This document shows positions 1,792 to 62,921 of a stretch of DNA of 64,000 nt, in pieces. Under the pieces are notes generated by a model. That model saw nothing but the letters and a program-made list of their open reading frames with translations. It made no database searches and was not told the DNA's origin. Made by a program: the position numbers and the translations under genes. The stretch spans positions 4,682-68,681 of the forward strand of contig CAYXYJ010000006.1 of assembly GCA_964469295.1 (NCBI GenBank), given 5' to 3'. Within the stretch, counting starts at the first letter, position 1; the number at the start of each line of letters is the position of its first letter. The DNA is from an uncultured Candidatus Saccharibacteria bacterium (lineage in GTDB: Bacteria > Patescibacteriota > Minisyncoccia > Phycocordibacterales > UBA918).

Positions 1792-3456
1792 ATGACACGT
1801 CCGTATACTGTGGTGTGTAATACTACACCCGAAACTCTCCTGACTGATTTACTCGTGACGCGAGGGGTAATGACCCGTGATGAGCAAGAAGCATTTTGTC
1901 GTCCTGATTATGACAGGCTTCATGATCCGCTGTTGTTGCATGATATGCCGGTGGCTATCAAAAGAATTATGGCAGCCGTTGAAGCAGAAGAACATATCGC
2001 GATTTTCAGTGATTATGACTGCGATGGTATTCCTGGAGCAGTAGTGCTCCATGATTGCTTCACAGCAATTGGACACAAAAATTTTTCCAATGTTATTCCA
2101 CATCGTCACTATGAGGGATTTGGATTGAGTGTCGAAGCGGTGCACAAAATGGCTGATGCGGGAGCAACACTGATTATTACCATCGATTGTGGGACGACTG
2201 ATGTTGAGGCGGTTGCCGTGGCTCGGGAACGTGGCGTTGATGTCATCGTTACTGATCACCATGAACCGGGTGCGATTTTGCCAAACGCAGTAGCGATAGT
2301 AAACCCAAAGTTAGGTGAATACCCCTTTCCACATTTGTGCGGCGCTGGAGTGGCATTTAAAGTCGCTCAAGCGCTGGTGGCAACCGAAAAATTTACGGTA
2401 ACACCTGGTCAAGAAAAATGGTGGCTCGATATGGTCGGAATCGCGACCATTGCTGACATGGTACCACTGGTTGGTGAAAATAGAATTTTGGCTCATTTCG
2501 GATTATTGGTGTTGCGTAAATCTCGCCGACTAGGTCTGCAACAACTGTTACGAAAAAATCGAATTCCGCAACAGTATCTGACCGAAGAAGATATTGGATT
2601 TACTATTGGGCCACGTATTAATGCTGCGTCACGGATGGACGCACCGGAAGACGCGTTTCATTTATTGACCGCAACCGAAGATGTCGTTGCTGGACACTAT
2701 GTTGATCATTTAGAGCGACTGAATACTGATCGCAAAACTGCCGTTGCACTTATGACGCGCGAAATTCATGGACGAATGCGTGATCTCATTGAGGTGCCAC
2801 CGGTGATTGTAATGGGAAATCCATTATGGCGCCCGGCTCTTGTGGGGTTGGCGGCAAACAAATTAGCTGAAGAATATAATAGACCAGTCTTTTTGTGGGG
2901 ACGCGACGGAAATGAAGTGATCAAAGGTTCTTGTCGTAGTGGCAACGATGTCAGTGTTGTGAAGTTAATGGAAGCGACAGCCAGTGCATTTATTGAATTT
3001 GGTGGCCATCATGCGTCTGGCGGATTTTCGGTGTATGAACCACACATCCATACATTGCCAGAGCAGTTGATAGAGATGTACACCCAACTAGGTGCAAGCG
3101 TGACCATTGCTACCGAAACACAAGTAGATGCAGAATTACGGCTACAAGATATCTCTCGTGTGAAGCCCACACTCGCAACCCTGGCACCATTTGGCAGCGG
3201 TCATCATCGTCCCCTCTTTGCGTTTCCGTCGGTACAACCAGTAGTGGTAGAACAGTTTGGCAAGGGGAGTGAACATACCAAGCTGGTGTTCAAAGTCGAT
3301 CGTGACACTATTGAAGGGATAGCTTTTTTTACCACCCCAGATCGTTTCACTCACTCTCCCCAAATCAATGTACCGTGTACAGTGCTTGCTCATATCGAAG
3401 ATAGCTTTTTTGCAGGGCGACGGTCGACCCGTTTACGAATTGTTGATATTGTCTAA
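1792..3456 (+). CDS. recJ: single-stranded-DNA-specific exonuclease RecJ (DHH/DHHA1 family)
   Basis: 554 aa; DYDCDG and DHHEPG (DHH motif) plus GGHHASGG (DHHA1) motifs. Confidence 0.88.
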   Translation: MTRPYTVVCNTTPETLLTDLLVTRGVMTRDEQEAFCRPDYDRLHDPLLLHDMPVAIKRIMAAVEAEEHIAIFSDYDCDGIPGAVVLHDCFTAIGHKNFSNVIPHRHYEGFGLSVEAVHKMADAGATLIITIDCGTTDVEAVAVARERGVDVIVTDHHEPGAILPNAVAIVNPKLGEYPFPHLCGAGVAFKVAQALVATEKFTVTPGQEKWWLDMVGIATIADMVPLVGENRILAHFGLLVLRKSRRLGLQQLLRKNRIPQQYLTEEDIGFTIGPRINAASRMDAPEDAFHLLTATEDVVAGHYVDHLERLNTDRKTAVALMTREIHGRMRDLIEVPPVIVMGNPLWRPALVGLAANKLAEEYNRPVFLWGRDGNEVIKGSCRSGNDVSVVKLMEATASAFIEFGGHHASGGFSVYEPHIHTLPEQLIEMYTQLGASVTIATETQVDAELRLQDISRVKPTLATLAPFGSGHHRPLFAFPSVQPVVVEQFGKGSEHTKLVFKVDRDTIEGIAFFTTPDRFTHSPQINVPCTVLAHIEDSFFAGRRSTRLRIVDIV

Positions 3457-7219: not shown

Positions 7220-8080
7220 ATGAAGTTATCTCTGGTGACGCTACGGCTGTTAGCAATAGGGGTATTAGGCACATCAATATTTTTATTACTGACACCACCC
7301 CGAGCGGTAACGATACATAACCAGCACTTGTCGGTAACATTTTTGGACGTTGGCCAAGGTGACGCGATTTTGATTGAGACGCCAGATGGGGTACAGGTGC
7401 TCATTGACGGCGGACCTGACCGCCGGGTAATGAGTGTACTCGCTGCGGAATTACCTTGGTTTGATCGCACGCTTGATTTAGTAATTGGGACACACCCGGA
7501 TCAGGATCATATTGGCGGATTAGTTGATGTGATTGCCAATTATGAGGTCGGGACCTTATTGGTTACCGAAAATCGTGGTGAAACCATGACAGCAACCGCC
7601 TATCGAGAAGCCATTAACGATGAAGCTGCTTCGGTGGTACTCGCGAGAGCCGGGCAAGTATTCGCACTCGGAGCATCAACCACCTTGCGGGTGTTTTCTC
7701 CGGCGAGTGATCCATCATTTTTGGAAAGCAATACCAGTTCGATTGTGGTGCAGGTGGTATATGGCAACACCACATTTCTATTAACCGGAGATGCTCCGGT
7801 TGGTATTGAAAACTATCTGGCAGCGACCTATGGTGCAATATTACAGAGTGATGTTTTGAAATTAGGTCACCATGGGTCAGATACGTCATCGGGTGAGTTG
7901 TTTCTCGATACGGTACAACCCACGTATGCAGTAGTTTCCGCCGGTCGTGATAACCGCTATGGGCATCCGAACCAAGAAGTGATTGATCGAGTAGTGTCAC
8001 ACCACGCTACTATCTATGCGACTGCCGAAAAGGGAAGTGTTACTTTTGTATCTGATGGTTATACGGTTTGGGTGGAGTAA
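7220..8080 (+). CDS. metallo-beta-lactamase domain protein = detached C-terminal nuclease domain of ComEC, with its own N-terminal signal/anchor
   Basis: VTFLDVGQGDAILIETPDG...THPDQDHIGGL (HxHxDH MBL motif), typical ComEC C-terminal domain; N-terminus MKLSLVTLRLLAIGVLGTSIFLLL is hydrophobic. Confidence 0.8.
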   Translation: MKLSLVTLRLLAIGVLGTSIFLLLTPPRAVTIHNQHLSVTFLDVGQGDAILIETPDGVQVLIDGGPDRRVMSVLAAELPWFDRTLDLVIGTHPDQDHIGGLVDVIANYEVGTLLVTENRGETMTATAYREAINDEAASVVLARAGQVFALGASTTLRVFSPASDPSFLESNTSSIVVQVVYGNTTFLLTGDAPVGIENYLAATYGAILQSDVLKLGHHGSDTSSGELFLDTVQPTYAVVSAGRDNRYGHPNQEVIDRVVSHHATIYATAEKGSVTFVSDGYTVWVE

Positions 8081-8126
8081 CGAGAAAAGTGCGGCGGCCC
8101 GTAGGGCCGCCGCACTTTTCTCGTTA
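8078..8126. terminator. bidirectional terminator (20-26-bp perfect stem) between MBL gene(+) and rpmB(-)
   Basis: cgagaaaagtgcggcggccc gta gggccgccgcacttttctcg, extendable by flanking gagtaa/ttactc. Confidence 0.75.
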
Positions 8127-8130
8127 CTCT

Positions 8131-13742: not shown

Positions 13743-13891
13743 GTACGCGTATACTAGTACTATACCGTTAGAATATAAATTATTGCATTGTATGGCCAAA
13801 GGAGAATTTAGACACAAAAAAGAAGCCAAAAAACCAAAGAAAGACAAAGTTGATAAAAACAAATCTTCATTACTGTAGCTTTGCGTTTATA

Positions 13892-13925
13892 CCAAAACCA
13901 GCAATCAATTGATTGCTGGTTTTGG
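13892..13925. terminator. palindromic hairpin / terminator
   Basis: ccaaaaccagcaatc aatt gattgctggttttgg (15-bp perfect stem). Confidence 0.55.
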
Positions 13926-13937
13926 TATACTGCTCGT

Positions 13938-25647: not shown

Positions 25648-25867
25648 AGTGAGCCAACGAGCCGTGGGCGACTATGGCGAATTTTCTTCACATTTTCTAT
25701 TCCTAATGAAAATGTGAAGGAGCTCGGTATAATAGTGTCTTGCCTAAAGCGACAATGGCAAACTTTCGCGAGTAATTTGTCCACCTAGGCAAGTTATATG
25801 CGTCGTTCTTTCAAACAGAACACAGTGATGCAACAACAAAAACATTAGAGTTTTGGTTGGTCATACA

Positions 25868-25905
25868 ACACAAAAACCATTCCCTAGGGAATGGTTTTTG
25901 TGTTG
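25868..25905 (+). terminator. intrinsic terminator between rpsJ and rplC
   Basis: acacaaaaaccattccc tag ggaatggtttttgtgt perfect palindrome. Confidence 0.7.
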
Positions 25906-34384: not shown

Positions 34385-34432
34385 CTTTTTAGAAAGCAAA
34401 GAGTTTTGCTTTTAGCTAAGATAGAAATATAC

Positions 34433-34472
34433 AAAACAGCACCGCGGGCGTACGCCCGCGGTGCTGTTTTGC
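34433..34472 (+). terminator. intrinsic terminator after rplE (18-bp perfect stem)
   Basis: aaaacagcaccgcgggcg ta cgcccgcggtgctgtttt. Confidence 0.75.
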
Positions 34473-39843: not shown

Positions 39844-39965
39844 TTTCGCACTCTGCTTTGTCGCAACTGCAATTTTGTTAGTCGCCGTATATTGAATACG
39901 TCTTCTTCAAAAATCTTTTTGCTTCGTGCATAGTATCGAAATTACTACCGCTAAGAAACATTAGG

Positions 39966-40003
39966 GAAAACACAAAAGACCCCGCGGGGTCTTTTGTGTT
40001 TTC
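39966..40003. terminator. bidirectional terminator (18-bp stem)
   Basis: gaaaacacaaaagacccc gc ggggtcttttgtgttttc. Confidence 0.7.
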
Positions 40004-40007
40004 CATT

Positions 40008-42686: not shown

Positions 42687-42736
42687 AAAAGGCCGCCGAA
42701 GAATTGGTCGCAACCAATTCTTCGGCGGCCTTTTCT
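42687..42736 (+). terminator. intrinsic terminator (22-bp perfect stem) after map
   Basis: aaaaggccgccgaagaattggt cgca accaattcttcggcggcctttt. Confidence 0.8.
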
Positions 42737-44186: not shown

Positions 44187-45557
44187 ATGAAAAGTATTTT
44201 GGGATTTTATGGTGGAGTAGGGAGTGTAACCGGAGCGAATTTTATGCTTGATACCGGCGGGGCAGCCTTTCTTCTTGATTGTGGCCTGGTACAAGGCGAT
44301 CGGTTTGTGTCTAGCAAAAATGGTGATCCCTTTGTGTATGATCCCGCGCACGCTGATGTGCTATTGGTGACGCACGCGCACGCCGATCATATTGGGCGAA
44401 TTCCAAAATTGGTGAAAGATGGCTTCATCGGTACAATCTATTCGACTCATCCCACCAAAGATTTAGCGGCGGTAATGTTGCGCGATGCTTTAAAGGTGAT
44501 GGAGTACGAGCATGAACGCTACGGGTACGCGATCATTTACGATGGAACCGATATTGATACAGCGCTATCATTGTGGCGCACGGTTGATTACCATGAAACG
44601 ATAGCCTTACCAGATGGCGTGAGTGCATATTATAGTGATGCCGGACATATTTTGGGATCGGGTATGGTACATCTGGAACGAAACGGTAAAAAGATTGTCT
44701 TTACAGGGGATATTGGGAATGTTCCGCAACCATTACTCCAAGCGCCAGAAATTCCAACCGGTTACGATTATCTGGTCATGGAAAGCGTGTATGGTGATCG
44801 AGTCCATGAACAAGTTGAAGAGCGGACTGAATTATTAAAACACCATATTCTAGAAACCGTACAAAAAAATGGCACATTAATCATTCCGGCGTTCTCTTTG
44901 GAACGGACTCAGGGAATGTTACTCGAGATTAATAATCTGGTCGAAACCAAACAAATCCCCACTATCCCGGTATTTCTCGATTCACCACTGGCGATTACGG
45001 TCACCGATATTTATCGCCGTTACACTAGCTATTTGTCACCAGCAATCCAAGCGCAAATTACTAGCGGCGATGACATTTTTAATTTTGGCGGATTATCGTT
45101 TACCAAAACTGTAAAAGAATCGTATGAGATTGACGAAATAAAGGGTGTAAAAATTATTATTGCAGGATCAGGAATGAGTCACGGCGGCCGAATTCAGCGA
45201 CACGAACAACAGTATCTCGATGATCCCAAAACCACGGTTCTGCTAGTTGGTTATCAAGCGACCGGGAGTATTGGCCGGATTCTCCAGGACGGTGCCAAGA
45301 AAGTAACAATTGACGGCAAAGTCGTGAAGGTAAAAGCGCGTATCGCTCGCATTGCGGGGTATTCTGGTCATGCTGATCGCGATCAGTTGGTGAATCTGGT
45401 CGCTTCTGGCGCGGAAACGCCAGAAGCAATCAAGCAAATATTTGTCGTCATGGGTGAGGAGCGATCGTCGCTGTTTCTGACGCAACGATTACGCGAATAT
45501 TTGGGCGTACGCGCGGTAGCGCCGGATGAAAATGAAGAGGTAGAGATAGATTTTTAG
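44187..45557 (+). CDS. MBL-fold beta-CASP ribonuclease (RNase J / CPSF-like)
   Basis: 456 aa; LVTHAHADHIGRIP (HxHxDH), downstream beta-CASP region and C-terminal RNA-metabolising MBL domain signature. Confidence 0.75.
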   Translation: MKSILGFYGGVGSVTGANFMLDTGGAAFLLDCGLVQGDRFVSSKNGDPFVYDPAHADVLLVTHAHADHIGRIPKLVKDGFIGTIYSTHPTKDLAAVMLRDALKVMEYEHERYGYAIIYDGTDIDTALSLWRTVDYHETIALPDGVSAYYSDAGHILGSGMVHLERNGKKIVFTGDIGNVPQPLLQAPEIPTGYDYLVMESVYGDRVHEQVEERTELLKHHILETVQKNGTLIIPAFSLERTQGMLLEINNLVETKQIPTIPVFLDSPLAITVTDIYRRYTSYLSPAIQAQITSGDDIFNFGGLSFTKTVKESYEIDEIKGVKIIIAGSGMSHGGRIQRHEQQYLDDPKTTVLLVGYQATGSIGRILQDGAKKVTIDGKVVKVKARIARIAGYSGHADRDQLVNLVASGAETPEAIKQIFVVMGEERSSLFLTQRLREYLGVRAVAPDENEEVEIDF

Positions 45558-46164: not shown

Positions 46165-46327
46165 CCCGTAAGAAATTAGGTTGCTAATGAAAGATAATTG
46201 ATCGGGTTGCCAAAAAGGGAATTGGCAAGGTGGGAGAAATATACCGTACTTTGCGGAAAATATCAATAGGATTGCCGTTAGGGAAACAAACAGCCGCCAG
46301 GGGCCATGGCCCCTGGCGGCTGTTTGT

Positions 46328-47050
46328 TTAAATCAACCCACCGGCTAGTAATTCATCCAAATCTTTCTTTTTGTTCTTTTGTGGTTGAACGGCTGCTTTC
46401 TTCGTTTCAACGATAGGTTTGGCGGCATCTTTTAGTTTTTGTACTTTTGTTCCCGGCATTCGTTCGAGCGTCGTGGTGTAGCCCTTGGGACTTTTTTTCA
46501 CCTCGTCGGCTATTTTATACTCGGTAGGGATAATTTTGAGAAAACGATCTAGCCGTTCTTTCAAAAAGGCAGGTTCCATGTATTTATAGCGACCCCAAAG
46601 GAAGAGATCAACTTTAACCCGGTGACCCTCTTCGAGCCACTCAGCCACTCGACTGGCTTTGAGTAATTGATCGTTATCACCAGTGCCAATTTTTACCTGG
46701 ACACTCTTGGTTTCGGTGACATGTGATTTCGCCTTCATTTCACTGGCTTTGCGACCGCTGTCGTAACGGAATTTTCCGTAGTCCATGATTTTCGCAACGG
46801 GAGGGTTGGCGTTTGGACTAATTTCAATAAGGTCGAGATTCAATTCATCAGCCTTAGTCAAGGCATCAGCAACCGACAGTACACCAAAATTTTCACCCTC
46901 TGGACCAACGACACGTAACTCTTTCGCCTTAATGGCGTGATTAATGCGGGTTTTTACTTTAGGGGTGTATGGACTTTTGTTTGGTTGCAAATTATTTTGG
47001 CTTAAGAGGTAAACGTCACGTCTGGGCAGTGTGGAGTTAATTAATCCCAA
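46328..47050 (-). CDS. infC: translation initiation factor IF-3 (non-ATG start; exact start uncertain)
   Basis: ...RINHAIKAKELRVVGPEGENFGVLSVADALTKADELNLDLIEISPNANPPVAKIMDYGKFRY...; ORF-track start is TTG; IF-3 classically uses AUU/AUA. Confidence 0.85.
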   Translation of the reverse strand: MGLINSTLPRRDVYLLSQNNLQPNKSPYTPKVKTRINHAIKAKELRVVGPEGENFGVLSVADALTKADELNLDLIEISPNANPPVAKIMDYGKFRYDSGRKASEMKAKSHVTETKSVQVKIGTGDNDQLLKASRVAEWLEEGHRVKVDLFLWGRYKYMEPAFLKERLDRFLKIIPTEYKIADEVKKSPKGYTTTLERMPGTKVQKLKDAAKPIVETKKAAVQPQKNKKKDLDELLAGGLI

Positions 47051-48950: not shown

Positions 48951-48988
48951 ATAACAAGACGCGGCCACTAGTGGCCGCGTCTTGTTAT
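48951..48988. terminator. bidirectional terminator
   Basis: ataacaagacgcggccac ta gtggccgcgtcttgttat. Confidence 0.75.
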
Positions 48989-55905: not shown

Positions 55906-56127
55906 TTACTGGAACAGGGCGAAGACAGGCGACAGAAGAAAGTCGCCGATGAAGCCGAGTATCCAGAAGATGAAACCGATGAACGGAACGGCGAAGCTTG
56001 CCGTCAGGAAGCGTCCAGGGATGGACTGCACTTTGTGTCTGTTCACCTTGATGCTCCCGAAAAAGGTCGCACCAAGGATGAAGACTGCCCACACGATGAG
56101 GGCGATGGTCACCATTGTCATTTTCAA
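55906..56127 (-). CDS. small two-TM membrane protein (73 aa), in high-GC block
   Basis: hydrophobic ORF; competing overlapping ORFs on both strands look like GC artefacts. Confidence 0.35.
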   Translation of the reverse strand: MKMTMVTIALIVWAVFILGATFFGSIKVNRHKVQSIPGRFLTASFAVPFIGFIFWILGFIGDFLLSPVFALFQ

Positions 56128-56651
56128 TCTTCGTCAGTTGATGAGGGGGGAACTTTCAATAATAAGTATAGCATAAAGTATGCAAAAGTCAAGCATTTCA
56201 AGCAGAATAGGCTTTTTTTTGGTAAAATAGCGCTATGGAATACCTCTCTACTCCAACAGAGCAAACAATCAATGCTGGTACTTGCTTAGCATCGTATGTG
56301 GGTGAGTAAAGCACCACTAACCTTTAAGGAGTTTTCTGAGATTATGGACAAGATACCCGGTGATATTAAGAAAGTTCAATCAACAACAGAGAAACACGCT
56401 TATATTGCACCTATCTTCTTGAACTTTTCTGTAAGTGCAAAAAAGGTAGAAAATTACACGTTAAAACAGCCTTTTGAGGGGCTGTCTTAACGAGAAATTA
56501 TCTGAATGTGGAAATCATTGAACGAAGTTAAAACCTCATTGATTGAAATGGAGTGTGCAAATTTCTTGAAAGTAGTGGATTTGTGGTGAAAAAAGAAAAG
56601 CCCCACGAGTGTGAATCGTGTGACTCTTCTCGTGAGGCCCGCAGGTCGCCG

Positions 56652-57239
56652 TTAGGCGGCCTTGGCGAACATCGCATGGCTCGGGAGATGCTTGAGCGCC
56701 ATGGCCAGCGCCGTGATGGCCGTCATGATCTCGAGCATCTTCCATGCCGGGATCTCGAGCATGACGTCGGCCTTGCCATCGGTCGAGTCGGTCGAGACAG
56801 ACTCGAGTTCCTCGAGCGTCGAGCAGATCTTCTCGCCATCATAGTAGGTGGCGTCGTGCCGCCCGAAGGTCGACTCGAGCACGTGCTTGGCGAAACCATC
56901 CCAGTCCTGCGGCGTCGGTATCGGCCGCAGCATGCCCTCGCCCAGATACTTCTTGAAGGCGTCGAGCACGAGGTGCGTGATGCCGCCGTCCGGCTTGTAG
57001 GACTGGAACGGATCGGCGGACGTGAGGCGGGCATCAAAGCCGGCCATGGCGGCCGTTTCCGACATGTAGGTGTCGCTGTTGTTGCTGTTGAAGATCGGTT
57101 CACCCGTTTCGGAGTCGCTGTCCTGCTCGAGGTAGCTCACGGTGTAGACCTTGAGGCCGTGGTATCCGGCGTAGCCGTCCGTGACGTCGAGATGGAGCAT
57201 GTCGCCGTTATCGAAGGTATGCGATTTCAGATCGGTCAT
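56652..57239 (-). CDS. hypothetical protein (~195 aa), GC-anomalous, adjacent to tmRNA 3' end
   Basis: start MTDLKSHTF at 57239; ~60% GC gives rise to overlapping spurious ORFs on both strands. Confidence 0.5.
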   Translation of the reverse strand: MTDLKSHTFDNGDMLHLDVTDGYAGYHGLKVYTVSYLEQDSDSETGEPIFNSNNSDTYMSETAAMAGFDARLTSADPFQSYKPDGGITHLVLDAFKKYLGEGMLRPIPTPQDWDGFAKHVLESTFGRHDATYYDGEKICSTLEELESVSTDSTDGKADVMLEIPAWKMLEIMTAITALAMALKHLPSHAMFAKAA

Positions 57240-57384
57240 TGACCAAGTCCTTCCAGTTGGGTTGAAACTGCGATAATAATACACTAAATACTAAAAAAGT
57301 CAATAGTAGGTTCTAATTTCCATACATCTCTCTGAAAATACACAAAACGAGCCTTATAAAATAAGGCTCGTTTTGCTTCAGATT

Positions 57385-57781
57385 TGGTGGAGATGGGGAG
57401 AATTGAACCCCCGTCCGAATCATGGTGTCCGCGTGACTCTACAGTGCGTAGACTTCTTTTTGATTTAAACAATTGACCTAGAAAAAAGACAAAACAGTCA
57501 ATCATCGAGTTTTAAGAAATTCAGTTCCTTATGAAAACGACACAAGAAACCAGAGCTTCATGGCTATTTCACCCGCATCCCGTATGAAGCCTCGGGGAAG
57601 CGAGCGTCGCAGCGGCGAGCGTAAGGTTACGCTACAGCGGGTGCGAATCCAAACGCGTTCGCGTAAGGACTTGGTACGCTATTCTTTGCACGTACAGGTA
57701 CCTGAGTTTTTCTAAGTGATCTCAGGCGGCACTTACACTGCACACGGGGACGACGCATAACCGTCGATGCCTAGCATCCCC
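57385..57781 (-). ncRNA. ssrA: transfer-messenger RNA (tmRNA, SsrA), ~397 nt, CCA encoded
   Basis: minus-strand reads 5'-GGGGATGCTAGGCATCGACGG...GGACGGGGGTTCAATTCTCCCCATCTCCACCA-3' (tRNA-like acceptor/T-arm); internal tag frame GCAAAGAAT...GCACCCGCTGTAGCGTAA = (AKNSVPSPY)ANAFGFAPAVA*. Confidence 0.85.
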
Positions 57782-57913
57782 ACTCAATATGCAAATCATT
57801 TGCATTATTCCATAGTGAGTAGGAACGGCGTCATGTAGTGATGACGCGCGCATGGGGAGAATCTTTCGAAAATATAAGCAAAGGTGGCAGACGGCCTTAC
57901 GGCCGTCTGCTTG

Positions 57914-58270
57914 TCACTGGCGCAACGGGTGACAACTATCGACTCCGAAGTCAGCTCCGCGCGGCACCGCTCGGGGTTGGATGATTCCGATGTCGTCCGC
58001 GGTAATTTCCTCATGTTTCTTCGTCGGAGCTTCCGCGGCACTCAGGTACTCTCTGAGTGCTTTCTGGTTAATGTTTCCATCTACCAGAATACCTTCGCGA
58101 TGAAGTCTCAGCCTGTCTGCATCAGTCAGGCTTGCAACACCAGATTGACCCATGAGGTGAAGCCAGTGATAGGCGTCGCAATTTCCGTCAATTCCATACA
58201 CACTTTTCTCCCTTTTTACAGTTACTAATTTCAGTCCAGATAGATGGGTGGGTGGGCGAATGAACGCCAA
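57914..58270 (-). CDS. hypothetical protein (start uncertain: 58270 or internal Met at 58153)
   Basis: ORF between tmRNA and the IR-flanked ORF; N-terminal coding region overlaps the left IR. Confidence 0.35.
   Translation of the reverse strand: MAFIRPPTHLSGLKLVTVKREKSVYGIDGNCDAYHWLHLMGQSGVASLTDADRLRLHREGILVDGNINQKALREYLSAAEAPTKKHEEITADDIGIIQPRAVPRGADFGVDSCHPLRQ
58223..58248. repeat. left arm of a perfect 26-bp inverted repeat (tactaatttcagtccagatagatggg)
   Basis: exact reverse complement of 58608-58633. Confidence 0.9.
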
Positions 58271-58281
58271 CCCACAGTTCG

Positions 58282-58563
58282 TCAGTCGGATTCGAGCCAG
58301 GCTTCAACCCAGGTCTTGAGGGCTTCAATCGGATCCTCGTCATCTTCTGGGGCCCTTTTGATGACGAGGAGGACGTCAACAAAAAACTCTCGTTTCTCTC
58401 GCCCTTTTTCTTGGTACCGCTCGAGCACCAGGTCGAGGTCTGCGGCAATGGTGAGAGTTTCCTCATCAACAAGCAGTCCGCCGAGCGCGCTTGGGAGCTC
58501 GATGAGGTCTTTCCCGCGTTCTTGACCGCGGATAATTTCGATTACGGTCGCTATTTCGACCAT
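58282..58563 (-). CDS. hypothetical acidic protein (93 aa) bracketed by the 26-bp inverted repeats
   Basis: MVEIATVIEIIRGQERGKDLIELPSALGG...; sits upstream of the 57914 ORF; could be an antitoxin-like partner (speculative). Confidence 0.4.
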   Translation of the reverse strand: MVEIATVIEIIRGQERGKDLIELPSALGGLLVDEETLTIAADLDLVLERYQEKGREKREFFVDVLLVIKRAPEDDEDPIEALKTWVEAWLESD

Positions 58564-58607
58564 CTGTCTCTCTCCTGTTTGTGTCTGATGGGTCTTGTTA
58601 TCATGTG

Positions 58608-58633
58608 CCCATCTATCTGGACTGAAATTAGTA
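58608..58633. repeat. right arm of the 26-bp inverted repeat; overlaps the last two codons and the stop of smpB
   Basis: cccatctatctggactgaaattagta; smpB TAA (58628-58630) lies inside the repeat. Confidence 0.9.
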
Positions 58634-59074
58634 TTGTGATTTTAAGGTACGATCAATGTCTCGTTTCACGTCGCGCTCTTTGATGCTCTCACGCTTGTCA
58701 GCTTTCTTTTTGCCGCGTGCGATTCCAATCGAAATCTTGATATTCCGTCCACTATTGTACAATGATAACGGGACACACGTCAACCCCTGCCGTTCCGTTT
58801 TCAATTCGATAGTTGCAAGTTCTTTTGGTTTTAATAATAGTTTGCGAGCCCGTTCCGAATCGTATGATTTGGCGGTGTTAATTGGCTGCCATGCCGGTAC
58901 GCTTGTCCCAACCAAAAAAGCCTCTTTTCCGCGTACTTTAATATATCCACCATCAATCTTTACCCGCCCTTGTCGGATTGATTTCACTTCCGTACCGAGC
59001 AGCACCAAACCTGCCTCGAAAGTTTCGAGGATTTCGTAATCGAAATGGGCGCGTTTGTTGGTGGCGTAGCTCAT
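58628..59074 (-). CDS. smpB: SsrA-binding protein SmpB
   Basis: 148 aa, MSYATNKRAHFDYEILETFEAGLVLLGTEVKSIRQGRVKIDGGYIKV... Confidence 0.9.
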   Translation of the reverse strand: MSYATNKRAHFDYEILETFEAGLVLLGTEVKSIRQGRVKIDGGYIKVRGKEAFLVGTSVPAWQPINTAKSYDSERARKLLLKPKELATIELKTERQGLTCVPLSLYNSGRNIKISIGIARGKKKADKRESIKERDVKRDIDRTLKSQY

Positions 59075-59195
59075 ATATATGTACGTCGTTACTATACCGC
59101 GACAATCGGGAAAAGGTAAGGGAAAGCGGGCGGGCGAAGCCCGCCCGCCAATAACATCTCGCTATTTAACCGAGTTTCTGTATAATGGCAACACT

Positions 59196-61223
59196 ATGTC
59201 TGAATTAGAAAAGAATCAACCAGATACCGAAGAAACAACCAGTGGTGAACCGGCATCACAACCACCAAAAATCAAAAAAACCTCCCGCGAGAAAATTACT
59301 ACCCTGCGTAAGCAGGTACCGGTCGGGCCGGGTAATTTCTGGAACAATATCCTCTCGACCGTATTGTTCCTGATTTTAATTATGGCCGCCTTTTCGTATC
59401 TGACCGATCATCAATCAAAACCTGAAGAACTTACGTTATCGCAAGTGGTTGAGCAGGTTAAAAAAGGTGAAGTCAAAGAAATCGTTGTGCGAGGAAGTGA
59501 CCTAGAGGTAACCTATAAAGATGAGTCTCGCACTCGCGGTGAAGCGAAGCGCGAAACTGACGCTGCTGTCTCTGAAACCCTTACCAACCTCGGAGTCACT
59601 GGCGAACAATTAGCGGCGGTCACGATTGATGTCCAGCGCGAAACAGGCTTTATGTACTGGCTCGGAGTATTTTCGCCAATTCTCATTCCGCTACTATTTC
59701 TTGGCGTTCTCTTGTGGTTTTTGACTCGATCAGTAAAAGGTGCGGGGATGCAAGCCTTAAGTTTTGGTAACAGCAAGGCCCGTATGATTGACCCGAATGA
59801 CACCAGTAAAAAAGTGACATTCAAGGATGTGGCTGGGGCCAAAGAAGCGAAACAAGAACTGGAAGAAATTGTTGATTTCTTAAAAAATCCTAAAAAATTC
59901 ATTGATATTGGCGCCGAGATTCCGAAAGGTGTCATGATGATGGGAGCACCCGGAACGGGGAAAACATTACTGGCGCGCGCGGTTGCGGGTGAAGCCGGAG
60001 TCCCGTTCTTTTCGATTTCTGGTTCGGAGTTCGTTGAAATGTTTGTGGGGGTGGGTGCGTCGCGAGTACGTGACCTATTCCAAATGGCCAAGAAAAATGC
60101 GCCCGCGATTATCTTTGTTGATGAAATTGACGCGGTCGGTCGGGTGCGTGGTACTGGTATGGGCGGTGGAAATGATGAGCGTGAACAAACGCTTAACCAG
60201 ATTTTGGTAGAAATGGATGGCTTTGAGCCAAATGCCAAGGTAATTGTGATGGCGGCGACTAACCGTCCGGATGTGCTTGATCCGGCATTGTTGCGTCCGG
60301 GTCGTTTTGATCGACGGGTGACGATTGATTTACCGGATCGTAAAGACCGGCGAGAAATTCTCGGAGTACACGCTCGTAAAAAAGCTTTGGCTGAAGATGT
60401 AAATTTAGAAATCATCGCGCAACGCACACCAGGATTTTCTGGTGCCGAGTTGGCCTCACTCATGAATGAGGCAGCGATTTTGGCAGCCCGTGAAGGGCGG
60501 AAAACACTCAGTCAATTTGATATCATTCGTTCAATTGAAAAAGTAATGTTAGGTCCAGAACGAAAGAGTCATGTTATGAGTAAACGGGAACGACTCGTTA
60601 CGGCATATCACGAAGTTGGCCACGCGTTGGTGGCGTCGGTACTTGAATATGCTGACCCAGTCCAAAAGATTTCGGTCATCTCACGCGGACGGGCAGCGGG
60701 ATACACCTTAAAGTTACCGGACGAAGATCGAAAAATGCATACGAAGAAAGAATTCCTGGATGATATTGCGATGACCCTTGGCGGGTATGTGGTAGAAGAA
60801 ATGGTCTTTCAAGATTTATCTACTGGTCCAAGTAACGATTTACAAGTCGTTGCGAATTTGGCTCGTGATATGGTTACTAAATATGGTATGAGCGACACTC
60901 TTGGTCCGGTCGCGTTTGAAGGTACTGGCGGTCGGTTGATTGGCGGTGGAGTGAGTGAAGATCGTGGTTATTCACCACAAGTGGCCAAAGCGATTGACGA
61001 TGAAGTGACTCGCATCATTGAAGAGGGTAAAGTGCGGGCGCGAGAAGTGCTTACCAAATATCGTGCGGCCTTGGATTCAATTTCTCATAAATTAGCCGAA
61101 GTGGAAACGCTTGAACGAGATGAATATGAGGCGTTGCTCAAAGAAGCGGGAGTGCCGATTAATGATGTGTACGAAAAACGACGACGTGAGGACGAAGCAG
61201 ATCCATCAAGTGTATTAGAGTAG
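59196..61223 (+). CDS. ftsH: ATP-dependent zinc metalloprotease FtsH
   Basis: MSELEKNQ... two TM helices, AAA module [34 protein letters not shown] zinc site; TATAAT at 59181-59186 just upstream; start inside the 59079 ORF. Confidence 0.92.
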
Positions 61224-62824: not shown

Positions 62825-62847
62825 GTAGGAATCTTTCTATAGTCTTG

Positions 62848-62921
62848 TCCGTGTGCCTGGACTCGAACCAGGGGCCACAGAGGTATAAGCTCTGCGCTCT
62901 AACCAACTGAGCTACACACGG
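62848..62921 (-). tRNA. tRNA with anticodon UAU (AUA-reading tRNA-Ile-like), 74 nt, no encoded CCA
   Basis: minus strand: CCGTGTG-TA-GCTC-AGTTGGTTA-GAGC-G-CAGAG-CTTATAC-CTCTG-TGGCC-CCTGG-TTCGAGT-CCAGG-CACACGG-A; perfect 7/4/5/5-bp stems, U33, A37, A73. Confidence 0.75.

Follow-up and report, generated by a model that had tools for sequence, protein, structure and literature searches.

The window analyzed here is a 64,000-nucleotide (nt) stretch of contig CAYXYJ010000006.1, in which an exact inverted repeat brackets a small gene, orfA, between smpB and the transfer-messenger RNA (tmRNA) gene ssrA. Comparative data from about 30 related species show that this repeat specifies a vertically inherited, long-range helix in the sense-strand RNA, predicted to enclose the first small gene past smpB. 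On the minus strand, the order of the locus is smpB, arm 1 of the helix, orfA, a GC-rich hairpin, arm 2, orfB, the tmRNA gene, and a terminator (Table 1). The sequence TACTAATTTCAGTCCAGATAGATGGG (58223-58248) has its exact reverse complement at 58608-58633; the two copies are 26 nt long and 359 nt apart. When the window was searched for the arm motif with up to 3 mismatches, only these two matches were found, and 100 shuffles gave none. No other long-distance perfect inverted repeat exists in the 64 kb, where all remaining ones are hairpins with loops of 0 to 5 nt. The repeat and the spacing reported in the initial annotation are thus confirmed and nonrandom, and its gene identifications stand as well: smpB matches Pfam SmpB (2e-49), the tmRNA gene was recovered by both ARAGORN and Rfam (93.8 bits), and the acidic open reading frame (ORF) of 93 codons at 58282-58563 is present on the minus strand. 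Two details required revision. The arm had been said to take in the last two codons of smpB and its TAA, but it contains a single sense codon (TAC) followed by the TAA stop, 6 nt in all. The described overlap of the left arm with a second ORF, orfB, holds only if orfB is given an unlikely extension to a TTG at 58270 and fails for the GTG start at 58201 that public data assign to the gene. With that GTG start and a ribosome-binding site (RBS) at 58208-58212, arm 2 is intergenic and lies 21 nt upstream of orfB.

To compare this arrangement across relatives, we used 80 smpB loci from species-representative genomes whose SmpB proteins are 50 to 74% identical to that of the window (85 loci in the anchor test described below). 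In these relatives, smpB followed by ssrA on the same strand is the usual arrangement, and the spacer ranges from 1 to 3346 nt. The closer relatives, of the Kaiserbacteria/Paceibacteria type, carry an inverted repeat in the equivalent position, with arm 1 on or just past the smpB stop codon and arm 2 94 to 473 nt downstream (median loop, 355 nt). Under a strand-symmetric score, the repeat anchored at the smpB stop exceeded the 99th percentile of the null, and indeed all of its anchors, in 38 of 85 loci; the long-loop architecture is found in about 30 of the 38. The null was drawn from 255 random anchors in the same loci and had a maximum of 27. Over 30 loci, the arms are 17 to 27 nt long (median, 22), and in 24 of them arm 1 begins at -5 to +3 nt relative to the final base of the stop codon. 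The GC-rich hairpin abutting the 5' end of arm 2 is above the null 95th percentile in 28 of the 30 and follows without a gap in 26. In nearly all loci, the loop holds a small sense ORF of at least 40 codons with a Shine-Dalgarno (SD)-like sequence. Past arm 2, the RBS of the following gene lies at 13 to 45 nt and, in several loci, the tmRNA lies within 38 to 108 nt.

The distribution of the element follows the relatedness of its hosts. Nearly all relatives with SmpB at least about 61% identical have it at the same site (the exceptions are loci L025, L026, and L054), short smpB-ssrA spacers are common only among more distant relatives, and arm sequences are most alike between loci with similar SmpB. 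In one subclade (L009, L010, L016, and L018), nucleotide sequence is conserved over the 45 nt that follow arm 1 and the 35 nt that precede arm 2, and the middle differs. The smpB-ssrA spacer is a variable slot for small genes within an arrangement that is old and vertically inherited. Only in this weak form does the earlier suggestion of a two-gene cassette inserted at the smpB/ssrA junction survive.

Some lineages have additional conserved structure at this site. In L009, L010, L016, L018, L053, and L070, the hairpin before arm 2 has a common sequence, ATCGAGCAGTCGA, and the conserved 45 nt past arm 1 include a small CCGG-AAAG-CCGG hairpin. The window has neither ATCGAGCAGTCGA nor the conserved 45 nt of that subclade, and the element may be more ornate in some lineages.

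The arms differ by species and yet remain complementary (window, CAGTCCAGATAGATGGG; L015, TAGTTACAGAAAGGTGGT; L018, CACTTCAGAAAGATGGT; L070, CACTACAGCAAGACGGT). In a 22-locus alignment, 93.1% of the cells were paired, versus 38 to 48% when the partner arm was slid by 1 to 3 columns. Both sides had changed in 21 of 22 aligned pairs, and none of 500 shuffles matched the observed values. Covariation alone also fits paired protein-binding sites in DNA, and we therefore counted the types of mismatches. Read on the coding strand, the arms of 30 loci total 632 Watson-Crick pairs, 24 G.U pairs, and 18 mismatches (2 A.C and 16 other). A DNA site predicts equal numbers of G.U and A.C; the 24 versus 2 observed under strand-symmetric scoring (binomial P of ~5e-6, for events that are not fully independent in related species but whose direction is unambiguous) indicates selection on the sense RNA. 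Arm 1 of L001 has a single C-to-U change, which would convert a G-C pair to G.U if arm 2 is unchanged. In agreement with a helix, the 431-nt RNA of the window folds with a minimum free energy (MFE) of -163 kcal/mol (z = -6.7) into a structure containing the 26-bp closing helix and the stacked hairpin. Among the possibilities raised initially, an mRNA-level duplex serving as an RNase III substrate that gates orfA is the one that fits these data, since the arms covary and G.U outnumbers A.C.

Over its inner 11 nt, arm 1 shows conservation of sequence in addition to pairing. Its inner half has the consensus AGAAAGGTGGT (window, AGATAGATGGG), with ATG or GTG in almost every locus; the base before TG is only A or G (RTG). 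The outer end of arm 1 lies on the smpB stop codon, and the inner end is purine-rich and includes an AUG (58612-58610 in the window).

The enclosed gene belongs to a small protein family. An exhaustive search of 1.84 billion protein representatives identified 15 homologues of OrfA, with E values down to 7e-21; a word-indexed protein search returned the query alone, and exact look-ups of OrfA and SmpB in a contig index gave no match. The family is marked by the motifs G.D.IE.PS..GGIFVDDET...AADME.V and DP.E....WL, with invariant G, G, L, and W. The AlphaFold model of OrfA has four helices (predicted local distance difference test score, 92), and OrfA is predicted to be an acidic, soluble four-helix protein in a family of about 90 to 115 amino acids (aa). 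None of the 16 members matched a Pfam family at threshold, including the 23S rRNA intervening-sequence protein (PF05635). The PDB sequence search gave E values of 0.17 or worse, Foldseek against the PDB gave E values above 2, and PADLOC gave no match for OrfA. Four homologues had retrievable contigs (L089 to L092). These loci were picked through OrfA protein homology, independently of the repeat, and in all four orfA lies directly past smpB within a bracketing repeat whose arms are 21 to 25 nt long and 91 to 100% complementary. The OrfA profile also matches the loop ORF of L012 and, weakly, that of L011. The loop ORFs of other loci belong to other, or unrecognizably diverged, families. As for orfB, a weak homologue lies at the equivalent position in L032 (tblastn E value of 6e-4), and an ORF in L011 has a YG[IM]DGN-like start resembling that of orfB, as judged by eye only. 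OrfB had no Pfam match, and a word-indexed protein search returned the query alone.

The genes of the locus could be carried on one RNA. The terminator past ssrA is the sole convincing terminator-like site on the minus strand downstream of smpB; the remaining minus-strand sites in the scan lie inside smpB, inside ssrA, or upstream of smpB. The scan flagged no promoter-like or terminator-like minus-strand site in the interval from the smpB stop to ssrA. With a strong terminator past ssrA and no flagged site before it, a single transcript is plausible. The hairpin together with arm 2 was considered as an intrinsic terminator and rejected, as it was not flagged by the scan and has no U-tract.

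We propose that an icaR-like closing helix in the smpB-orfA-orfB(-ssrA) transcript of this Kaiserbacteria/Paceibacteria-type candidate phyla radiation (CPR) bacterium ties both the translation of orfA and the survival of the transcript to translation of smpB, and we hold this to be moderately probable. We infer the mechanism by likeness to the icaR 5'-3' untranslated region (UTR) interaction. Under this model, the helix would start on the smpB stop codon, close the entire orfA cistron as a 359-nt loop, stack on the GC-rich hairpin at its 3' side, and end 21 nt before orfB. Arm 2 would sequester the purine-rich, start-codon-bearing inner half of arm 1, from which short overlapping frames would lead into orfA. 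A double-strand-specific RNase, for example RNase III, would act on the two-turn duplex (median, 22 bp; 26 bp here). Two helical turns are about the duplex size that RNase III needs, and against a size criterion of near-perfect double-stranded RNA of about two turns and at least 20 bp, the window has 26 bp. Because arm 1 begins on the smpB stop, a terminating ribosome would have to melt the outer turn of the helix. Melting of the outer turn would then tie orfA translation and transcript survival to ongoing translation of smpB.

Two sequence features point to further steps of this model. Just past arm 1 is a short local copy of the beginning of arm 2, which may hold arm 1 until arm 2 has been transcribed. 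The copy comprises the first 5 to 8 nt of arm 2, lies 5 to 30 nt past arm 1, and covaries with the arm (CCCATC, ACCATC, and ACCGTC). A local partner of at least 6 nt was present in 7 of 30 loci (shuffled mean, 0.46; maximum, 4) and one of at least 5 nt in 15 of 30 (shuffled, 2.75). It could pair with the inner end of arm 1 as an alternative small hairpin. The second feature is a set of short frames. In L009, L010, L016, and L032, the frames opened by the RTG of arm 1 run straight into orfA; elsewhere they reach it via short ORFs, each with a stop overlapping the next start. In the window, AUG GGC ACA UGA, whose stop overlaps the next AUG (AUGA), is followed by a 17-codon ORF and then by orfA. 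L014 has VVQ*, then 22 codons, and then orfA; L089 and L029 are similar. An RUG followed by 2 or 3 codons and a UGA overlapping an AUG is also found in L011, L014, L015, L092, and L029. These frames are suggestive of a short-ORF relay into orfA.

Several points weigh against this coupling model. It rests on comparison of sequences, the species compared are related and so are nonindependent observations, and choosing the best inverted repeat at every locus as the arms overstates the percentage paired. The frame of the putative relay is not conserved everywhere (for example, in L012, L015, and L018). orfA has an SD-like sequence of its own (GGAGAGAG) upstream; this sequence and the orfA AUG lie 45 nt inside the loop, outside the helix, so that pairing covers the conserved purine-rich RTG and the short-ORF starts and leaves the SD and AUG of orfA uncovered. 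The purine motif of the arm (GGUGG or GAUGG) is an imperfect SD sequence. Treating arm 1 as a true SD and arm 2 as a mimic of the 16S 3' end is thus only partly tenable, as the core is GGUGG or GAUGG and not GGAGG; AGAAAGG would pair with the 16S tail, and we retain the term SD-like for the motif. A scan of the 64-kb window for RNase III motifs was negative, a result that is uninformative at that extent. The hairpin 3' of orfB (57887-57910) went unflagged in the terminator scan and may still act in termination or in processing ahead of ssrA; if it terminates, ssrA may be transcribed separately. Finally, L044 keeps the helix and the hairpin around a loop of only 94 nt, with room for no more than a 35-codon ORF that runs into arm 2, and the helix may therefore have a role independent of orfA.

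The case of L044 is equally what would be expected if the helix is a processing or stability stalk only, at which a double-strand-specific RNase separates the smpB mRNA from the downstream RNAs or which simply protects 3' and 5' ends, with no role in initiation or coupling. This is the main rival to the coupling model, and we judge it unlikely. It accounts well for arms that cluster at two helical turns (17 to 27 bp; median, 22) with near-perfect pairing and for the stable hairpin stacked on arm 2, and there is precedent in rRNA precursors, whose flanking sequences pair into long stems that RNase III cleaves (PMC6582327). Also encoded in the window is a metallo-beta-lactamase protein with beta-CASP/RMMBL domains of the RNase J/CPSF type (44187-45557, plus strand); should it be an RNase J that depends on 5' ends, pairing of the 5' end would confer resistance to it. 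However, a stalk leaves three features unexplained: the sequence conservation of the inner half of arm 1 with its RTG, the position of arm 1 on the smpB stop in 24 of 30 loci, and the covarying local partner past arm 1. Nor is a stalk necessary for release of tmRNA, since tmRNA 5' ends are made by RNase P (PMC3985003). Alternatively, the whole segment from arm to arm could be a structured noncoding RNA with a closing helix, conserved internal hairpins, and a variable domain, in which the loop ORFs are incidental or secondary. The nucleotide conservation that flanks a variable middle in L009, L010, L016, and L018 is compatible with this view, as is the lack of detectable OrfA homology in most loop ORFs. 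We nevertheless find it quite improbable, given the protein-level conservation of the OrfA family (the invariant G, G, L, and W) with its confident fold and the presence of a sense ORF of at least 40 codons with an SD-like sequence in nearly every loop. In addition, no Rfam family matches the segment; covariance models run over 56000-60000 with E values up to 1 returned only the tmRNA and one unrelated subthreshold match.

Explanations at the DNA level fare worse. In one of them, the repeats are sites for a site-specific invertase that flips 58249-58607 and so switches orfA and perhaps orfB; a perfect 26-bp repeat with copies 359 bp apart is in the size range of known invertons, which have inverted repeats of 20 to 30 bp a few hundred bp apart. 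Unlike invertons, however, the element has one orientation in about 30 species (the hairpin is on the arm 2 side in 28 of 30, and the loop ORF is in sense). Two independent assemblies of the species, L001 (~99% identical; SRR26424594) and L093 (100% identical; ERR2586217), cover one arm each and are both in the orientation of the window. The strand-asymmetric tolerance of G.U (24 versus 2 A.C) is not predicted for a protein-bound DNA site, and one arm covers the stop codon of an essential gene. Recombinase, integrase, and transposase domains were all absent by Pfam from the 51 window ORFs scanned, in agreement with the initial annotation. We consider an inverton very improbable. The L001 and L093 contigs, which are Logan assemblies of different runs, break inside orfA at 58371 and 58394, within 24 nt of each other, next to a 10-bp internal inverted repeat (CCTCGTCATC / GATGACGAGG). 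These breaks are not at the arms, where inversion would place them; strain variation and a drop in coverage are possibilities. A mobile origin, in which a miniature inverted-repeat transposable element (MITE) carrying orfA was inserted at the smpB stop region, possibly with a TA target duplication, is in our view extremely improbable. Terminal inverted repeats, small size, and TA at both ends are shared with MITEs and with TA-duplicating elements of the IS630/Tc1 type; the TA ends are compatible with an empty site CAA-TAA-CTGTAAAAAGGGAG, and the GC content of the segment is 50 to 56%, versus ~45% in smpB and ftsH. TA is self-complementary, though, and may simply belong to the repeat. In contrast to mobile elements, this one is single copy, occupies the same orthologous site in about 30 species with arm similarity that tracks SmpB similarity, and has no transposase in the window. 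No further copy of the arm was found: the exact 26-mer gave 0 matches in 185,579 species genomes, a 23-mer with one degenerate position gave 0 in Joint Genome Institute (JGI) metagenomes, and a looser 18-base pattern gave 0 in viral contigs. That 18-base pattern had 48 metagenome matches, none with a partner arm or smpB, which by our own estimate is a chance number for a collection of this size. The related idea that a mobile element brought its own stop codon into smpB is contradicted by the relatives, whose SmpB proteins end in ...KSQ* or ...KSQY* whether or not the repeat overlaps the gene; because they end alike, the stop codon was not supplied by the repeat.

Elements of this design are known in other contexts. 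In the hok mRNA of hok/sok type I systems, an mRNA of about 400 nt that carries a small ORF is closed by 5'-3' pairing (the tac-fbi fold-back), the main ORF is coupled to a leader ORF that overlaps it, and a local metastable hairpin holds the 5' element before its 3' partner is available. The element described here shares the end pairing around a small ORF, a putative overlapping leader ORF, and a candidate local hairpin. It differs in that OrfA is predicted to be an acidic, soluble four-helix protein and not a small hydrophobic membrane toxin, and in being chromosomal, smpB-syntenic, and nonmobile; we know of no antisense RNA for it. Intervening sequences of 23S rRNA are segments excised by RNase III, some of which have a small ORF, but OrfA matches neither the intervening-sequence protein family nor any other Pfam family. 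The RNase III stalks of rRNA operons are likewise formed by inverted repeats that flank a long segment, with a stem of at least two turns (PMC6582327). Unlike in both of these rRNA systems, what the repeats flank here is part of an mRNA, a protein-coding cistron that lies between smpB and ssrA. The closest parallel to the proposed coupling is icaR of Staphylococcus aureus, where the SD region is bound by the 3'-UTR, so that initiation is prevented and the duplex becomes a target of RNase III (PMC3868564). More generally, an RBS can be paired in vivo with anti-SD-like sequences located hundreds of nt farther downstream (PMC12697547). As in icaR, a sequence 3' of the cistron would pair 5' of its start in the same mRNA over hundreds of nt, and the pyrimidine-rich 3' partner resembles an anti-SD. 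The differences from icaR are the length of the duplex (22 to 26 bp, versus a short UCCCCUG core), its location inside an operon with a 5' strand that lies over the stop codon of the gene before it, and the stacked hairpin, local alternative partner, and covariation over a class-level clade; the effects here are predicted only. An RNase III-type structure in a gene linked to trans-translation is also found in the arfA mRNA hairpin, where RNase III cleavage removes the stop codon and yields a nonstop mRNA (PMC3989581, PMC10107115). In our locus, by contrast, both smpB and orfA would retain their stops, which lie either beyond the region of predicted cleavage or at its outer border.

Table 1. 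Coordinates of the features of the smpB-ssrA unit and of other hairpins in the window
Feature	Position	Strand	Basis or remark
smpB (148 aa), first gene of the unit	58628..59074	-	Pfam SmpB, 2e-49; relatives 50-74% identical
Arm 1, 5' strand of the RNA helix, UACUAAUUUCAGUCCAGAUAGAUGGG	58608..58633	-	
Mini-ORF AUG GGC ACA UGA, beginning within arm 1	58601..58612	-	Read from the sequence and relay analysis
Upstream ORF of 17 codons, overlapping the orfA start codon	58551..58604	-	Predicted, relay analysis
Local CCCAUC copy of the first 6 nt of arm 2, 15 nt past arm 1	58587..58592	-	
orfA (93 aa, acidic), cistron enclosed by the helix	58282..58563	-	
GC-rich hairpin (10-bp stem, 6-nt loop)	58249..58274	-	In the MFE fold; 3' end directly abuts arm 2
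Arm 2, 3' strand of the RNA helix, CCCAUCUAUCUGGACUGAAAUUAGUA	58223..58248	-	
orfB (95 aa, GTG start at 58201; P0007)	57914..58201	-	RBS GGGAG at 58208-58212; begins 21 nt past arm 2
GC-rich hairpin just 3' of the orfB stop	57887..57910	-	Read from the sequence
ssrA (tmRNA, tag AKNSVPSPYANAFGFAPAVA), last gene of the unit	57385..57781	-	ARAGORN and Rfam RF00023, 93.8 bits
Strong intrinsic terminator 3' of ssrA	57342..57376	-	Terminator scan
Palindromic hairpins elsewhere in the window	8075-8129, 13888-13929, 25866-25905, 34432-34471, 39965-40004, 42687-42734, 46284-46329, 48951-48988		

Cluster look-ups, which pointed to Kaiserbacteria, and the related loci assign the window to a CPR member of the Kaiserbacteria/Paceibacteria type. 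The genes of the window are mostly housekeeping genes, among them a ribosomal protein cluster and the genes for EF-G, EF-Tu, SecY, and IF3. The window also contains many perfect palindromic hairpins that are unusually long (arms of 19 to 26 nt and loops of 0 to 4 nt) and are probably terminators, possibly bidirectional ones. Upstream of ssrA, a perfect 17-nt palindrome, ATGCAAATCATTTGCAT (57789-57805), ends 8 nt before the tmRNA 5' end; possible roles are those of an operator or of a component of an ssrA promoter or processing signal. The ftsH gene (59079-61223, plus strand) neighbors smpB in divergent orientation, both here and in at least one relative (L090). FtsH degrades SsrA-tagged proteins, and ftsH, smpB, and ssrA thus form a functionally coherent cluster. 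A gene for tRNA-Ile with a TAT anticodon (62847-62921, minus strand) lies a few kb from smpB, as it does in L017, L042, L044, L045, L055, and L058. Directly past the ssrA terminator is a 210-codon ORF (56652-57284, minus strand) with 62% GC against a background of ~45%. More than 20 Kaiserbacteria-type contigs carry homologues with 91% identity in another neighborhood, beside a His_Phos_1 gene. The 3' side of ssrA is a common integration site, and this ORF may be foreign DNA there. In L012, ARAGORN called no tmRNA, and a tmRNA-like sequence lies at ~2400-3370, where spurious ORFs cluster with those found within the tmRNA genes of other loci. A LAGLIDADG-like ORF (2928-3368, minus strand) is beside it, and L012 may have a tmRNA gene interrupted by an intron. 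One study found introns in tmRNA almost exclusively in Bacillota (10.1101/2025.07.03.662931).

Searches of the literature on smpB and ssrA with RNase III and on tmRNA in Patescibacteria found no description of this element. It is a new form of long-range mRNA pairing or double-stranded RNA processing stem, together with a new smpB-syntenic family of small proteins. Conserved helices of 22 to 26 bp around a whole protein-coding cistron are rare in bacterial mRNAs, and the comparative support for this one is unusually clean. The finding carries a caution for genome scans, namely, that a perfect inverted repeat around a gene need not mean an inverton or a MITE. Counts of G.U and A.C mismatches over relatives discriminate repeats acting in RNA from those acting in DNA.

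The helix sits between two universal components of ribosome rescue, SmpB and tmRNA, beside ftsH, in minimal-genome organisms for which little regulatory RNA has been described. If the proposed coupling is true, the helix would provide such organisms with a compact means to make an accessory gene's expression depend on translation of the gene before it and also to process an mRNA-tmRNA precursor. A bolder extension, which we think unlikely, is that the helix-enclosed orfA is a dedicated, translation-licensed trans-translation module in this CPR clade. In that case, synthesis of OrfA, and perhaps of OrfB, would be restricted to ribosomes that have just finished smpB and melted the helix, these proteins would serve as hitherto unrecognized partners or regulators of SmpB-tmRNA, and an unmelted helix would be cut, setting the ratio of smpB mRNA, orfA mRNA, and pre-tmRNA from one precursor. 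The OrfA family, unannotated and strictly syntenic with smpB, is a candidate accessory factor of trans-translation in CPR bacteria.

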